A DNA stretch of 64,000 bases from a virus (taxonomy: Duplodnaviria; Caudoviricetes). Below the pieces are notes generated by a model. It searched no databases. It was not told the origin of the DNA and saw nothing but the letters and a program-made list of their open reading frames with translations. The translations under genes were made by a program, and so were the position numbers. This document shows, piece after piece, positions 10,694 to 56,180 of this stretch; within the stretch, counting starts at the first letter, position 1; every line of letters starts with the position of its first letter. The stretch is from the IMG/VR virus record IMGVR_UViG_3300017766_004544, positions 18,230 through 82,229 of that record. The stretch is one strand, 5' to 3'.

Positions 10694-10737
10694 CTCGTCG
10701 TCGTTGAGACCCGTTGCTATGACTAGGGAGCAAGGGA

Positions 10738-21312: not shown

Positions 21313-21852
21313 TCAGAAGAAGCCGCCCTGCGCGAAAACATGTACGCGTGTTGCCGCACTGGGAGCCGACAGCGCTGCACTCACTCCCACGTACACCAGC
21401 GCAGTCGAGGGTACGTACAGGCCAGTATTTTTCTTGTCCGTCTCGGTTGGATAAGTGGCCATGGTCGCGGCGGGCGACGCCAGGTTTGGCACCGGGACCG
21501 ATAGTGCTGGCAGAGAGATGTTGACGCGCTGGCCTGCGGTATTACCTGCGGGGATTGCAACGCTGGCGACGCATGCCGTATTCAGTGCTGAAACCGAGGC
21601 TGTCGTTGCAGCCGTACTCAGGAACACCAGGACTGTGCTGGCGGTTGTCGATGCTTCCGTGATGACCACCGACAGCGAATCGATGACGCCGCCATCATTG
21701 GAACTGCAGTCAACCAGTAGCGCGCATCCGGCTCCGCTGGGTGTGTTGAAATTCGTCGCTGTGGTCAGAGCAGCCGTACCGCCGATCGTTGCAAATGAAT
21801 GCAACGGGCGATCGACCAGCAAGGGCATTTTGTTGCTTGAGCTTGTTGCCAA
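21313..21852 (-). CDS. Putative structural protein
   Basis: TTG start, A/T/S-rich beta character, TAGACT 44 nt upstream. Confidence 0.65.
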   Translation of the reverse strand: MATSSSNKMPLLVDRPLHSFATIGGTAALTTATNFNTPSGAGCALLVDCSSNDGGVIDSLSVVITEASTTASTVLVFLSTAATTASVSALNTACVASVAIPAGNTAGQRVNISLPALSVPVPNLASPAATMATYPTETDKKNTGLYVPSTALVYVGVSAALSAPSAATRVHVFAQGGFF

Positions 21853-21912
21853 TCTCTACCCCCGAGGCGTCAGCCAGACTGCAAGACCTGCATTGCAGTC
21901 TAACCGTGACAA

Positions 21913-24719: not shown

Positions 24720-25358
24720 TCAGGACTCGGTGATGTAGGGGATGCTCACGTCATTCAGCTCGGCCACGGCATCGTCGAGGTAGTAAGCCACCTCGCAGAT
24801 GATGGGGGTGCCACCAGTCAGGCTGGAGGTCAGGGTCGAGCCGGCTGCGGTGCCGGCGCTGCTGGTCACGAAGACCTTCAGGGTTTCGGCGCCAGTCAGT
24901 GCCACAGGAGTGATCACAGACTTGCTGGCAGCCACGGGGGCCACGGTGCCGCTAGCCACGGCGATGGTGGCGCTGTTGGTCGACAGAGTTGTCGCGGTCA
25001 GCGCATCATCGTTGCCGATGGCGTCAGCCAGCTTGATCCGGTTGGTGTTGGTGCCAACCAGGCCAGAGAAGGCGGTGCCCACGCCACGGTCCTTACGCAG
25101 GTCAGGCACACGCACGCCCAGGTAGTAGACGTTGGCGCCAGCAGGCAGGGTCAGGCCAGTGATGTCAGCACGGGCCTTGTCATCACCGCGCTTATCGGGC
25201 GAGGGGATGATCACATCGAAGCTGGTGCCGCCGGTGGCGTTAACCAGGGCGTAGCCAGTGATGTGGTAGTACACACGGCCGGGCAGGCAAACCGCGGGCT
25301 GGCCCTGGTAGGAGCTCAGGCGGTTGACGTAGTTGCCGGGGTAGATCTTCTTAGCCAT
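24720..25358 (-). CDS. Putative capsid decoration / minor capsid protein
   Basis: Directly follows the MCP stop and precedes a strong terminator; beta-rich. Confidence 0.55.
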   Translation of the reverse strand: MAKKIYPGNYVNRLSSYQGQPAVCLPGRVYYHITGYALVNATGGTSFDVIIPSPDKRGDDKARADITGLTLPAGANVYYLGVRVPDLRKDRGVGTAFSGLVGTNTNRIKLADAIGNDDALTATTLSTNSATIAVASGTVAPVAASKSVITPVALTGAETLKVFVTSSAGTAAGSTLTSSLTGGTPIICEVAYYLDDAVAELNDVSIPYITES

Positions 25359-25374
25359 AGTTCGTTACCTCCTA

Positions 25375-26099
25375 TCAGTACACGAACGAGTAGGCCACGG
25401 TCACGAAGTCCTTGTTCAGGATCTCGAAACCGGCGAAGAGCGACCAAATCATGATGATAAAGCGACTGAAATCGTCGTTATTATTCAACAAGATCTGAGC
25501 GTTGTTGCCGCCGATGCCAACGCCCACGGCCTGAGGACCGAAGAACAGCATCGGAGCAGCGGTGGTCACGGCGCTGGTGATAGAGGCATCAGCGATCGTG
25601 ACCTGCAGGCTCTTCTCGGGTAGGTTGGTGCTCTCGAACCAACGGACGCCCTCAAAGAGGAAGCCCGAGGGCATCACGGCCTGGCCTGCCACGAAGCCGG
25701 CTTGACCGTAAGCAGGGCCCATGCCACGGAAGAAGCTGGCATTGGGGGCCAGTTCGGGCTGCATGGGGTTGACCATGCCATTGCCTGCATAACGAGCGAT
25801 CTCACGGAACGCATCGTTCTGACGCAGGTGCATCATTGCGGTGGGGTCCGCGATGCAGCGGTAGTACCCATCGGCGAAGGTGGGCACGTTGCGCTTACGC
25901 ATGTCCTTCACGACCTCGAGGAGGTCGGTCTTGACATCGAACTTGGCGGATTCGCCAGCTGCGTAGGTCAGGAAGGGGGCAGAAGCTGCCTTGGCCTTCT
26001 TCAGGGGGTAGAAGTAACCACCCTTGGTGCTGTCAGCTGCGCCATTGGCTTCAGCTTTGAAGAGTTCGTCGGCAAAAACCCGGTCACGCCAGCGCCTGT
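25375..26099 (-). CDS. Major capsid protein, exon 2
   Basis: Begins AC|AGG CGC TGG after the intron's terminal G and reads RRWRDRVFADELF... in frame into track ORF 25375..25911. Confidence 0.85.
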
Positions 26100-27296
26100 C
26101 ACTGCTGCCCCGAAGGGCCGCGAGGCTCTTTATCCTCGCGCTTGCTCTTTGTCATCGAGCAAGGTTAGACTATATCTTCACCATCCTTGAACTTCTGAAG
26201 ACCCCCTTGAACGCGTTGGCGCGCGAGGCGCTTGACGCGCTGACCGATTCACTCTCCGACAAGGAGATTGGCGAGCTCTATGGCCTGTCGAGGACGGCGG
26301 CCACCCATCATCGCAAAGCCGCTGGTGTGCGGTCGTTTGCTCAGAAGCACGGTCGACGCAGGTACGCCGACAGTTACGAGCGAAAACCTGGAGCCCAACG
26401 CGCCGTCAGCTATCGCCGCGAGATTCGCGAAGATTTCTTTCGCCAGATTGATACCCCCGAGAAGGCGTACTGGCTGGGCTTCCTTTCGGCCGATGGCTGG
26501 ATTGTCACCGAGAAAGGCGCCTTGAGGGGCGTTGGCCTTGCTCTGCATGAGAGAGATCAGGGCATCTTGGAGCAATACGCCCAAAGCGTTGGGTTCCCCG
26601 GCCCTCCCACTCGGGCTCGAGCAGGCTCACCGCTAATGCAGGTGAAGTTCACGAGTCCGGCCATGGCCGCGGATCTCGTGGCCCATGGGGTCACTCCCAG
26701 GAAATCTCGCACAATTACGTGGCCCGAGCTACAGAGTCGCCTACTCCGCCATTACGCCAGAGGCGTATTTGACGGCGATGGGTCAGTCGGGCGACGCCCG
26801 AATGGCTCTCTGGCAGCGCAGCTCACGACGGCAAGCGAGGCGTTCGCATATGGCTTCAAGTCGTGGGCCGACCCCGCCCTACCCCGGGAGACCTCCGTGG
26901 GTAAAGACAGGAATACCCACGTCTTGCGCTGGTACGCCGATAACGCCCTTGCTTTCGCCGGGCTCCTCTACGAGGGCACGACATCCGAGCGCTTGCGACT
27001 GGAGCGCAAGTACAGGGTCTTCTTCAGTTGACAAGGTGCAGGTGCGGGGCACTCGTGGGTCCGTTACCGAGTTTCCTCTCGGGACCTAGTCGTTGAACCT
27101 TCCGGCTTGTTGGCCGGATTGGCTGCTGATTACCCATGCGGCGTCAGGATTTTTAAGCGTTCACGATTGCCCTTCCGGGCTGCGTTGTAGCTCCTGAACC
27201 TATTCCGACCGCTGGCGTGATCGGGAAGGGCTTCCAGCAATTCACCCCGTGTTGCCCTAGGCGTTTCCGCCTAGGCGACCACAAGCCTTTCGGCCG
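26100..27296 (-). ncRNA. Group I self-splicing intron (1197 nt) in the major capsid gene
   Basis: P1 with U.G at the 5' splice site; IGS GCUUGUGGUC pairs both exons; P AAUUGCUGGAA, Q AAUCAGCAGCC, R GUUCAACGACUA, S AAGAUAUAGUCU; P9 hairpins; terminal G. Confidence 0.92.
26207..27031 (+). CDS. LAGLIDADG homing endonuclease, antisense within intron loop L8
   Basis: AYWLGFLSADGW and HYARGVFDGDGSV motifs, N-terminal HTH-like LSDKEIGELYGLSR; TTG start inferred. Confidence 0.85.
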   Translation: MNALAREALDALTDSLSDKEIGELYGLSRTAATHHRKAAGVRSFAQKHGRRRYADSYERKPGAQRAVSYRREIREDFFRQIDTPEKAYWLGFLSADGWIVTEKGALRGVGLALHERDQGILEQYAQSVGFPGPPTRARAGSPLMQVKFTSPAMAADLVAHGVTPRKSRTITWPELQSRLLRHYARGVFDGDGSVGRRPNGSLAAQLTTASEAFAYGFKSWADPALPRETSVGKDRNTHVLRWYADNALAFAGLLYEGTTSERLRLERKYRVFFS

Positions 27297-27714
27297 AGTC
27301 ATCCAGCAGAGTCAGCGAACCGATCGACTGGTGGAAAACATTCAGGTTGCCGGTGTCCAGCAGCAGGCGCTGGGCAGTCAGCAGGGTTTCCCGGGCCACC
27401 TTGAAGGTGGAGGGGGCGGAAGTATCGGTCGGATCAGCGGGGCCGGTGTACTCCTTGAGAGTCACCAGCACCTTATCCTTCACGATCGAGCGCGAAGATG
27501 CAGTGCCGAGGGTCTGATCAGCGGTACGCTCACGGCTGTCCTTGGTGCCAGGGGCACCCCAGAAGCGGTAGCGGTCAAGCTGAACAGTCTGGCCGGGTTG
27601 CTTGGCGAAGTCGTGCACAACCACGGGCTCGACCGCCATCTCCACGATGTACGAGGGATGGGGCCGATAGAGCTCGGCACCTAGCAGCTTCGGAAAGTCA
27701 TTGTCAATCCACAT
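27297..27714 (-). CDS. Major capsid protein, exon 1
   Basis: MWIDNDFPKLLGAELYRPHP...GQTVQLDRY...LTLLDD+T; 418 nt + 725 nt gives a 380-aa ORF; position and size fit an HK97-fold capsid. Confidence 0.85.
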
Positions 27715-27795
27715 GGGATGAAATGTCCGAGCGACAAGTGTGCGAGAAGGCACGCAAGGCGCCTCCTGGGGCTTACTATAAAACAGTCTCGTAGT

Positions 27796-28557
27796 GTGAA
27801 AAAGTTGGACGCCACAGACGTCCGGGGCCTGCTCAGCTTGTTGCTTGCTGATGGCAGTTTGGTGCCATATCGCAGTCCTGGAGGGGGATATATCCAGCTC
27901 ACGCTGACAGCCGGCGCAGCGGAGTCCGCGTTTCTCGAGGAGAAGGTCGCCGAATTCCGCCAATTTGTGCCGACGCAGGCGCAGATTGTTCACTACAAAA
28001 CCAAGCCGCGCGCCAACGGCCAGAGCACCTCGGTGCTGCGCTTTCGGGTGTCATCGACTCGCCTGCGCCCCGTCTACAACTTGCTCTACCCAACCGGGGA
28101 GCGTGAGATCAGCCAGACCGCACTCGACATGCTGGGCGCTCAAGCCGCTGCCTGGCTCTGGGCAGAAGGGGCACGGCTGCACCCAGAGGGCTACGTCGAT
28201 CTTGCCCGGGTCGGCAGGACCTTCGATGAGGCCCTGCGGGTCTGCCAGTGGATTGGAGTCTTGACCGGCGCGGAGGCAACGCTGGCCGATACCCACATCC
28301 AGCCTCGCCTGCGCTTCCAAAGGCGTGAGGCCAGCAAGATCCGCAAGGCCCTGCTGCCCTACGCACCGGCGAGTCGCATTCACTTATTCAAAGAGGAAGT
28401 CTGGGATGTCAGCCTCATTCGTAGCGCTCGCACTGAGCTACTGCTTGGGGAGGGGGACCCTTGGCCTCAAGGGGGCGAAGAAGCGGCCGTGGCTCGAGAT
28501 CAAACGCCGGGAGACGGACTTGACCTACCTGAACCACCAACTGCGCATGCTCCATAA
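27796..28557 (+). CDS. Free-standing LAGLIDADG-like protein
   Basis: VRGLLSLLLADGSL and LGAQAAAWLWAEG motifs; GTG start inferred. Confidence 0.7.
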   Translation: MKKLDATDVRGLLSLLLADGSLVPYRSPGGGYIQLTLTAGAAESAFLEEKVAEFRQFVPTQAQIVHYKTKPRANGQSTSVLRFRVSSTRLRPVYNLLYPTGEREISQTALDMLGAQAAAWLWAEGARLHPEGYVDLARVGRTFDEALRVCQWIGVLTGAEATLADTHIQPRLRFQRREASKIRKALLPYAPASRIHLFKEEVWDVSLIRSARTELLLGEGDPWPQGGEEAAVARDQTPGDGLDLPEPPTAHAP

Positions 28558-28966: not shown

Positions 28967-29182
28967 CTTGGCTTTGCTATTTCGATAGCAACCCCGAAGA
29001 AGAACGGCGTCAGGGGTATCTTCTCCAGGAGCTCGGATTTTTGCCGTTTCCCTGAGCTGGTGAGTGATCCGCCGTGCGTCTGATCAGCGTGCGGCGGCGC
29101 CTGGCACTTGCATTCCCAATAACTGCCAGATATTCGCTATTCGCGTATTGAGTAGCATTGCAGCATCTCTGGTGGGCATTAT

Positions 29183-30764: not shown

Positions 30765-31214
30765 TCAGACGAAATCGATTTCGAGCTGATACTTCAGGGT
30801 CGACTGGTCCTTTCGCTCGACCACAACCCAGAGGCGATCGCCCGCCAGCACGGTGAACGGCCCTAGAGCCACCGTTACTGTTCCGCGGGCAGGCTGCTTG
30901 CGGCTCAGGCAGGTGATCGCGGCAGTGGGCGTGGCGACGCCGCCAACCTGGCGTAGTACAGCGATATCTCCCACCGCACGATGTGAGGCTGTGAAGCCAT
31001 TCTCGCTATAAGGGCGCAGCGTGACGGTGTAGGCGCCTGCGCTGGTGCCAGCTCCGGTCGTGATCTCGTATTGATCGACCGAGCCCTGGATGCCGCCAAT
31101 TCGGGAGAAGTCGCTCTTCGTGTCTCCAGCCTTGGGTCCAACCAGCTGGCCGGGGCCCGTGATCGCCCGTTTTCCGTTGATACCCTTGCGGATGATCTTG
31201 TCGATGACGGCCAT
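30765..31214 (-). CDS. Hypothetical structural-type protein
   Basis: 149 aa; TAGACT 32 nt upstream. Confidence 0.6.
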   Translation of the reverse strand: MAVIDKIIRKGINGKRAITGPGQLVGPKAGDTKSDFSRIGGIQGSVDQYEITTGAGTSAGAYTVTLRPYSENGFTASHRAVGDIAVLRQVGGVATPTAAITCLSRKQPARGTVTVALGPFTVLAGDRLWVVVERKDQSTLKYQLEIDFV

Positions 31215-31258
31215 TTGTGCTCGCCAGGTGTCTATGCGTTAGATCAAGTCTAACGAGC

Positions 31259-42101: not shown

Positions 42102-42610
42102 CAGGTCAACAACGCTCCCCCACCGGTCAACAGGGAATTAAGCAGCGCTTCTTGCATCAGCCGCTCCTCTTCCTGGGCCAGCAGCTGCTCCTGCTCCTGC
42201 TTGCTTTGCCCTTCCATCGCGCGCTCGTACACGCCTGTGGCAATGGGCCTCGGCGCAAACATCGGCAGGGGCGCGGCAAGAATGTCGCCAGCGGTCATCG
42301 CATGGGACAGCTTCTGGGCGCGCTCGGCTGGATCCTTGAGGTACTTGCTCGCGGGGTACAGGGCCTCGCCTACGCCTCGACCAGCCGCACTACCCAGGAC
42401 TGAGCTGCCGGCACCGATCAGCATGTCTTCTGCAGCCAGAGCAATCCGATCGCTCAGCGGGGTCCCCTCCGGGGCCATGCCTGCACTGATCAGCGCGAAA
42501 CCTGCCTCGGGACCCAGTCGCAGGGCCAGCTCGCCTTTGCTTTGCGGAAGGATGTCCTTGAGCAGGTCGCCGAGCTTCGCCAGACCCATGGCCATGCGCG
42601 AGTTAGCCAT
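42101..42610 (-). CDS. Putative virion protein
   Basis: Stop/start overlaps on both sides. Confidence 0.6.
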   Translation of the reverse strand: MANSRMAMGLAKLGDLLKDILPQSKGELALRLGPEAGFALISAGMAPEGTPLSDRIALAAEDMLIGAGSSVLGSAAGRGVGEALYPASKYLKDPAERAQKLSHAMTAGDILAAPLPMFAPRPIATGVYERAMEGQSKQEQEQLLAQEEERLMQEALLNSLLTGGGALLT

Positions 42611-42888
42611 TACGCCATCCCTCCTTCTTCCGGTGAAGCGGGACCGAAAGGACCGCTAGACCAATAGCCAGTCCAATCCTTGTAGTACCCCCTCATATTC
42701 GGGTCTTTGGTACTGGATCCGAAGTCGCCGACCATCCCAATGTTGTCCTTGAGCTCTTTCCCGGCAAAGCGAATCGGAGTGCCGGCCTCGTAGCCGAAGG
42801 TGACCGGAGCTTCAGACCGGGTCAGCTTATTTTCCACCCCTTGCCCCAAGGCGGTGACGATATCCTTGCCGTCGTATCTGAACGCCAC
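42610..42888 (-). CDS. Hypothetical protein
   Basis: TAGACT 24 nt upstream. Confidence 0.55.
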   Translation of the reverse strand: MAFRYDGKDIVTALGQGVENKLTRSEAPVTFGYEAGTPIRFAGKELKDNIGMVGDFGSSTKDPNMRGYYKDWTGYWSSGPFGPASPEEGGMA

Positions 42889-42924
42889 AGAGCAGTCGTA
42901 CCGATACGGCTCAGTCTAACGACG

Positions 42925-45494: not shown

Positions 45495-45530
45495 ACCGCA
45501 AGCCGGTATTCAGTACGTCAGACAAGTCTA

Positions 45531-56118: not shown

Positions 56119-56180
56119 CAGGAGCCCTTGTTCGTGCTGCACGATCCAGCTATCTAACCTTCGCCCCAGTCTATTCAGCC

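Follow-up and report, generated by a model that had tools for sequence, protein, structure and literature searches.

A gene-start hexamer on the complement of a group I intron core as a candidate promoter of an antisense homing endonuclease gene in an S-EIV1-like cyanophage

The encroachment of intron ORFs on ribozyme sequence, reportedly described by Edgell et al. in 2011 as 'core creep', is said to concern coding sequence on the same strand. In bacteriophage T4, intron-internal phage promoters for endonuclease genes are established (2010, PMC2988022), and I-TevI represses its own late promoter via an operator that resembles its homing site (PMC2988022). Antisense endonuclease genes have been described in two other settings. 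The major capsid gene of mycobacteriophage LittleE contains an intron with a bottom-strand LAGLIDADG ORF (Pope et al. 2013, PMC3706429), and the searched text of that paper makes no mention of a promoter. The nuclear rDNA group I introns of Didymium carry antisense His-Cys box endonuclease genes, I-DirII and I-DsqI (PMC9548176, PMC3073962).

The locus presented here, which is known from sequence alone, combines features of these systems. As in 'core creep', one DNA stretch would serve both the ribozyme core and the expression of an endonuclease, although the signal would be one for transcription on the opposite strand and not coding sequence on the same strand. As in T4, a phage-type promoter would be located within a group I intron, directly upstream of the endonuclease ORF and separate from the promoter of the host gene. 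Its word would be the phage's own short -10-type element, and that word, TAGACT, is found inside the intron 23 nt before the aligned endonuclease start. A further parallel is possible: in T4 the I-TevI operator, which resembles the homing site, overlaps the promoter, and here a stretch over the candidate promoter region shows a resemblance of 14/18. However, the T4 ORFs are sense-oriented and occupy peripheral loops, with their promoters in loop DNA, whereas the present gene is antisense and its candidate -10 element lies on the complement of the P7 and J7/9 core. The likeness to LittleE consists in a group I-like intron in a phage major capsid gene with a LAGLIDADG gene on the opposite strand, but the phage group and the intron are different. 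The Didymium genes (PMC9548176, PMC3073962) are likewise antisense to the ribozyme and are expressed from an internal promoter of their own; they differ in being eukaryotic genes that have a pol II promoter, are polyadenylated and contain a spliceosomal intron, and in their insertion in P9.2 or P2-type peripheral loops, with no overlap with the catalytic core claimed. Intron-internal endonuclease promoters and antisense endonuclease genes are already known; the new part is the proposed promoter on the complement of P7 and J7/9, of which no description was found in the literature compared.

The phage is an uncultured S-EIV1-like cyanophage with an 82,229-bp IMG/VR genome bounded by terminal repeats, and the window, that is, the whole stretch of 64,000 nucleotides that was analysed, corresponds to positions 18230-82229 of that genome. 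In the phage collection, Synechococcus phage S-EIV1 was the only cultured relative found, with 69 % DNA identity over the head gene. This gene is split as follows.

25375 to 26099, minus strand: exon 2 of the major head gene (PHROG 1357 major head protein, E 2e-16; tblastn to 80 relatives)
26100 to 27296, minus strand (read from 27296 to 26100): IA-like group I intron of 1197 nt in the major head gene (Rfam RF00028; exon-junction comparison)
27297 to 27714, minus strand: exon 1 of the major head gene, with its ATG at 27714 (the alignment with S-EIV1 and relatives begins at MWIDNDF.../MAVEP...)

The last base of the 5' exon is U (27297) and the last base of the intron is G (26100), so that the junctions read GATGACT/CGGCC... 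and ...GCAGTG/ACAGG. Joining 27297 to 26099 restores the frame and yields ...LLDDYRRWRD..., as in the uninterrupted S-EIV1 gene; according to tblastn, the head gene reads through as LLDDYRRWRD in approximately 73 of 80 IMG/VR relatives, which are devoid of the intron. No match was obtained in an Rfam search at the gathering threshold, and the intron was recovered in E-value mode only. The 5' piece (27301->27039, P1 to P3', model positions 1-253) scores 38.9 bits with an E-value of 6e-8, below the gathering score of 50 because the L8 insert of 840 nt splits the match, while the 3' piece, UGAAGAUAUAGUCUAACC at 26180->26143, comprises the S element and P9 and scores 12.7 bits separately. The RF00028 alignment bears out the identification of TTAGACT on the plus strand as the reverse complement of the S element and P7 3' strand of a minus-strand group I intron. 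The elements of the 3' core are listed below.

26180 to 26194, minus strand: P8 3' strand and its extension (5' strand at approximately 27024-27040)
26173 to 26179, minus strand: J8/7, GAAGAUA, the complement of which reads TATCTT at 26173-26178
26168 to 26172, minus strand: P7 3' strand, UAGUC, within the S element (Rfam alignment; pairs with GACUA at 27091->27087)
26164 to 26167, complement of the plus strand: J7/9, UAAC
26141 to 26163, minus strand: P9 hairpin, CUUGCUC / GAUGACAAA / GAGCAAG, with the loop complement TTGTCA at 26149-26154

Covariation is seen for P8, P9 and P9.1. The P9 stem covaries in relatives L088 and L344 and in the endonuclease-less mini-introns described below, and P8, obtained by folding the joined flanks of the insert, is present in four lineages, with a different paired sequence in L088. 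The P7 3' strand UAGUC, on the other hand, is invariant across eight related introns, and the P7 assignment is based on this invariance together with the Rfam alignment. RNAalifold applied to endonuclease-deleted cores recovered P2, P6, P7.1, P8 and P9.1, whereas the long-range helices P3 and P7 were missed. The L9 loop is invariant in the introns that carry or once carried an endonuclease gene.

The intron is occupied by a gene on the strand opposite to the ribozyme.

26195 to 27031, plus strand: LAGLIDADG homing endonuclease gene that fills L8, with its stop codon at 27029-27031 (Pfam, PHROG, aligned start)

The protein matches Pfam LAGLIDADG_3 (PF14528) with 33.3 bits against a cut-off of 22.5, and PHROG 4645 with an E-value of 3e-41; its motifs LGFLSADGW and RGVFDGDGS are kept in five lineages, and a PDB sequence search gave no match. 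The dN/dS ratio against relatives is 0.06-0.2, which indicates purifying selection and therefore an expressed enzyme. Together with the patchy distribution of the intron among the 80 relatives searched by tblastn, this selection is an indirect sign that the enzyme may cleave the intron-less allele. The start had originally been assigned to the in-frame TTG at 26207, 35 nt downstream of TTAGACT at 26165-26171 on the plus strand. Both the word and the distance are correct, but the codon is not kept in relatives (TTA in L086, CTA in L087). The aligned start is at 26195, a position occupied by CTG in the phage studied here and in L086, TTG in L087 and L344, and GTG in L088, and translation probably begins at this CTG. 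As CTG is a rare initiator, it counts against TAGACT being the working promoter.

The first codons of the endonuclease gene (AACTTCTGAAGACCC, 26190-26206) are complementary to its last codons (GGGTCTTCTTCAGTT, 27015-27031) and extend P8 in the intron RNA; the same helix could also form in the antisense mRNA, where it could mask the start codon. Directly upstream of the head gene start, and divergent from the head gene, a 279-aa ORF (27718-28557, plus strand) shows a weak LAGLIDADG_2 match (E 5e-5, 23.6 bits against a cut-off of 25). This ORF may be a further homing-endonuclease-like gene, free-standing and co-oriented with that of the intron enzyme; the frame opposite to it on the head-gene strand remains open and aligns in several relatives.

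The placement of the gene in L8, as originally predicted, was corroborated: the ORF runs from stem to stem of P8, its stop abutting the P8 5' strand and its start region following the P8 3' strand. There is therefore no room for a promoter inside L8, and any local promoter must overlap the 3' core or the P9 region. Such a local promoter is required since the neighbouring upstream genes, between 12467 and 25911, all have the opposite orientation. The complement of P9.1 (26119-26140, plus strand), located just before the candidate promoter, forms an intrinsic-terminator-like hairpin followed by a T-rich run, which could insulate the endonuclease gene against antisense read-in. Given an expressed enzyme, other-strand neighbours and this hairpin, a promoter is needed between approximately 26140 and 26190. 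The interval includes one copy of a hexamer that recurs in front of genes of this phage.

26166 to 26171, plus strand: TAGACT, the candidate -10 element, 23 nt before 26195, the usual spacing of the other sites
21897 to 21902, minus strand: TAGACT, 44 nt upstream of the gene at 21313-21852
31247 to 31252, minus strand: TAGACT, 32 nt upstream of the gene at 30765-31214
42913 to 42918, minus strand: TAGACT, 24 nt upstream of the gene at 42610-42888
45525 to 45530, minus strand: TAGACT, 30 nt upstream of the 777-aa gene that heads a long minus-strand structural block
56168 to 56173, minus strand: TAGACT, 49 nt ahead of the probable ATG of a ferritin/Dps-like gene, the ORF of which had been over-extended

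The three further TTAGACT copies named in the original prediction, at 44, 32 and 24 nt upstream of the starts at 21852, 31214 and 42888, are all found, each on the minus strand. The shorter hexamer is the stronger signal. All nine copies of TAGACT in the 82-kb genome are located 22-49 nt upstream of a co-oriented gene, and eight of the nine fall in the -70 to -11 zone of co-oriented starts, which makes TAGACT rank first of all hexamers (binomial p 8e-11); the one exception is the copy before the over-extended ORF of the ferritin/Dps-like gene. The zone covers 4.2 % of positions, with starts taken from our own gene calls based on codon usage, and the next non-overlapping word of the zone in this genome is TAGAAT (p 2e-4). 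The copy that heads the structural block follows a 1-kb divergent gap. The distance from TAGACT to the aligned endonuclease start is 23-24 nt in this phage, L087 and L344, and 17-33 nt at most other sites.

The number of copies is in itself unremarkable. TTAGACT occurs four times against 2.07 expected, and 15 of 100 shuffles reach four, which is not significant; GTTAGACT is not significantly enriched in count either, and its one-mismatch 8-mer variants are no commoner than in shuffles. Global avoidance of TAGACT was considered and rejected: a reversed-word control suggested a 5- to 10-fold depletion, but this was misleading because all words containing TAG are rare, and Markov models of order 1-4 predict 8-14 copies against the nine observed. 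The signal of TAGACT is one of placement, not avoidance. Another word, TGCTAT/ATAGCA, has eight copies genome-wide, all of them intergenic (p 9e-7), for example at 10715, 28975/28985, 45904 and 61602 of the window, with one pair forming an inverted repeat at 28975-28990; this word, too, may have a regulatory role.

Related phages use the same or similar words. In G003, a 56-kb contig with the same intron, TAGACT ranks first (6/8 in the zone, p 2e-7) and TAGAAT second. TAGACT is also enriched in G006 and present together with TAGAAT in G001, and TTAGAA is also among the words of these two genomes. An orthologous gene (MAVFNKL...) retains TAGACT 25-30 nt ahead of its ATG in approximately 14 relatives, despite diverged flanks. 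AT-richer members enrich other TAnnnT words, namely TAAACT, TAAAAT and TATAAT in S-EIV1 and TACAAT in G005. In G002, the 90-kb contig of L088 from a GC-rich lineage, CCATACCCTC is found at at least 22 gene starts, 14-30 nt before the start codon, and TACCCT (22/37 in the zone, p 2e-22) replaces TAGACT as the gene-start word. In the G002 intron, TACCCT occurs 42 nt before the GTG start, on the strand complementary to the P9 stem; as an independent replicate of the arrangement studied here this copy was set aside, since its flanks are non-consensus and its spacing is longer than typical, and it lends weak support only. Capsid exon 1 of G003 also contains a TAGACT in antisense orientation that precedes no gene, and the hexamer is therefore not strictly avoided where it is useless.

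On the simplest reading, the TAnnnT words are presumably bare -10-type promoters read by the host RNA polymerase. Neither sigma-70 region 2 nor a T7-type polymerase was detected in the phage, apart from one weak region-4-like hit (E 0.016), and the negative result for PF00940 is a weak one in that control genomes also gave nothing. The lineage-specific nature of the words hints at a divergent phage transcription factor, which would fit them. TAGACT might instead be associated with gene starts without being a promoter, as a site where a phage regulator binds or RNA is processed, which would imply co-regulation. The nine sites share no -35 box (at the intron copy, TTGTCA is only 11 nt from TAGACT), and the sites at 21897 and 31247 lie in small hairpins, both of which would suit such a role. 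Nevertheless, TAGACT and its enriched variants all conform to TAnnnT, stand 20-45 nt before starts in a single orientation, and include the site that heads the long structural block after the divergent gap, and a function other than that of a promoter is considered very improbable.

TAGACT at 26166-26171 is therefore proposed, with a probability of roughly 0.5, as the working -10-type promoter of the antisense LAGLIDADG gene. The host RNA polymerase would read the bare TAnnnT hexamer (TAGACT, less often TAGAAT) without a -35 box, the antisense transcript would begin at approximately 26178-26180, and translation would start at 26195. As the ORF fills L8, the promoter would be placed on the complement of the 3' core of the ribozyme. 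Four bases of the hexamer (26168-26171) are complementary to the P7 3' strand and would be fixed by P7; the other two (26166-26167) are complementary to J7/9, and the complement would read TAGACT when the second base of J7/9 is A. The original prediction had the conserved core supply a ready-made promoter. The gene-start association of TAGACT, which points to a -10-type signal, supports part of this idea, but the promoter would not be ready-made, as P7 gives only four of its bases and, of 35 other viral introns that share the R element, only six give TAGACT. The loci examined lent no support to the related expectation of a preference of antisense endonuclease genes for L8: distant homologues of the enzyme are sense-oriented and located upstream of R, and the ORFs in P8 inserts of other introns are sense-oriented as well.

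The ribozyme core could also double as a promoter through J8/7. In this case, the working element would be a host sigma-70-type promoter, TTGTCA (26149-26154)-N18-TATCTT (26173-26178), and TAGACT would merely be located in its spacer. This pair is the only match of a promoter scan in 25300-27700, and bipartite matches of the kind (-35 box 5/6, spacer of 16-18 nt, TAnnnT) number only 10 genome-wide on both strands. No endonuclease-bearing lineage, G002 and L344 included, has lost TTGTCA or TATCTT, despite the covariation of the P9 stem, and the L9 loop, of which TTGTCA is the complement, varies in the endonuclease-less mini-introns. Yet TATCTT is uninformative, being complementary to the AAGAUA of the S element, a segment shared by the Rfam consensus and all related introns examined, and conservation of the L9 loop may have another cause, as it repeats the end of exon 1, GAUGAC. 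The rarity of bipartite promoters in this phage also speaks against one here, as does the lack of a -35 box at any TAGACT site. Moreover, the leader to 26195 would be only approximately 10 nt, and in G006 the TTGTCA/TATCTT pair is intact where the gene is dead and TAGACT has been lost. The bipartite element is thus judged unlikely to be the promoter in use.

For the hexamer itself as the promoter, the most informative position is its first T (26166), the complement of the second base of J7/9, which varies among related introns. This base is A, giving T in the hexamer, in four endonuclease-bearing lineages: the phage studied here, L086/L262, L087/L263 and L344, the last with an endonuclease of 51 % protein identity and a covaried P9 stem. 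A metagenome scan added only two close relatives, L262 and L263. The base is G, giving C in the hexamer, in L088/G002, which bears an endonuclease gene and uses another promoter word, and in L345/L346 (G006), where the endonuclease gene has been deleted to a remnant of approximately 100 nt. The change in G006 is one of only five substitutions in approximately 97 nt of intron, a coincidence with a chance probability of approximately 5-10 %. The base is C, giving G in the hexamer, in four endonuclease-less introns of 252-254 nt (L049, L058, L062 and L063). Among the 35 other viral introns with the same R element, it is G in 26, A in six, C in two and U in one. The presence of TAGACT tracks a live endonuclease gene, but the number of independent events behind this association is small, about three, which counts against the proposal. 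Since the second base of J7/9 varies among related introns, it is suggested to be unconstrained by splicing, and the decisive state looks selected, as if the promoter were tuned at a freely varying base.

The introns compared above display further features. The in-frame deletion in L345/L346 joins approximately the first 15 to the last 11 endonuclease codons and keeps P8 with its extension. The mini-introns of L049, L058, L062 and L063 are homologous to the present intron and inserted 21 nt (7 codons) upstream, after ATTGGGT (e.g. L049:1297-1572), and the same ribozyme is therefore found at two neighbouring sites in different phages. In L087 (1921-2900) and L263, which are of the G003 type, a second R-element match is located in exon 2 of the head gene, where the tblastn match is broken by approximately 470 nt; the gene probably contains a second intron here, one that lacks an endonuclease gene.

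The association with the J7/9 base also bears on the possibility that the intron copy arose by coincidence. AGUCUA would then be just an allowed variant of the S element and J7/9, the intron TAGACT would be silent, and the gene would depend on stray antisense transcription or on weak transcription from elsewhere, for instance from TATCCT at 26130 (complement of the P9.1 loop) or from within exon 2. The AGUCUA variant is shown by chance in 17 % of related introns, and the sequence around the intron copy is a poor fit to that of the other sites: four bases upstream, A replaces the T that is usual there, and A also follows the hexamer. A CTG start suggests that expression may be very low, and T4 segD provides a precedent for an antisense endonuclease gene without a recognisable promoter (PMC2988022). 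However, purifying selection on the endonuclease gene is strong, all other genomic copies of TAGACT stand before a gene, the T state tracks the live endonuclease gene, and the hairpin formed by the P9.1 complement would block read-in from exon 2. A chance occurrence is accordingly regarded as improbable.

A further resemblance concerns the sequence that overlaps the candidate promoter region. GTCATCGAGCAAGGTTAG (26151-26168, plus strand) is identical at 14/18 positions to the complement of the last 18 nt of exon 1 (27298-27315), that is, to half of the homing site. The alignment score of the L9-P9-J7/9 complement with the exon-1 end is 10, against a 95th percentile of 9 in shuffles, and the resemblance of the L9-P7 region to the exon-1 end reaches 16/18 in L088 and 18/21 in L087; lineage-specific covariation between the exon-1 end and this region was not found. 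By analogy, 26151-26168 could be an I-TevI-like operator over the candidate promoter, or else an RNA mimic of the exon. In its full form, the proposal would have the antisense of the P7 3' strand and J7/9 recruited as a lineage-specific endonuclease promoter that is switched by a single J7/9 base, with the L9-P9 complement as a possible operator for autorepression; this scheme is tentative and, taken as a whole, somewhat doubtful.

If the hexamer does act as the promoter of the endonuclease gene, one 6-bp stretch would serve on both of its strands, as part of the guanosine-site helix P7 in RNA and as a promoter in DNA, which would explain how an inverted endonuclease gene can be maintained within a loop that it fills completely. 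The notion of 'core creep' would likewise be widened to cover transcription signals in addition to coding sequence. A change of T to C, as found in nature, would then be expected to abolish promoter activity and to spare splicing, because related introns carry that base. Beyond the intron, the analysis provides probable promoter words for the widespread and almost unstudied S-EIV1-like cyanophages, TAGACT/TAGAAT in most GC-rich members and CCATACCCTC in one lineage, with which the transcription units of these phages may become predictable from sequence.
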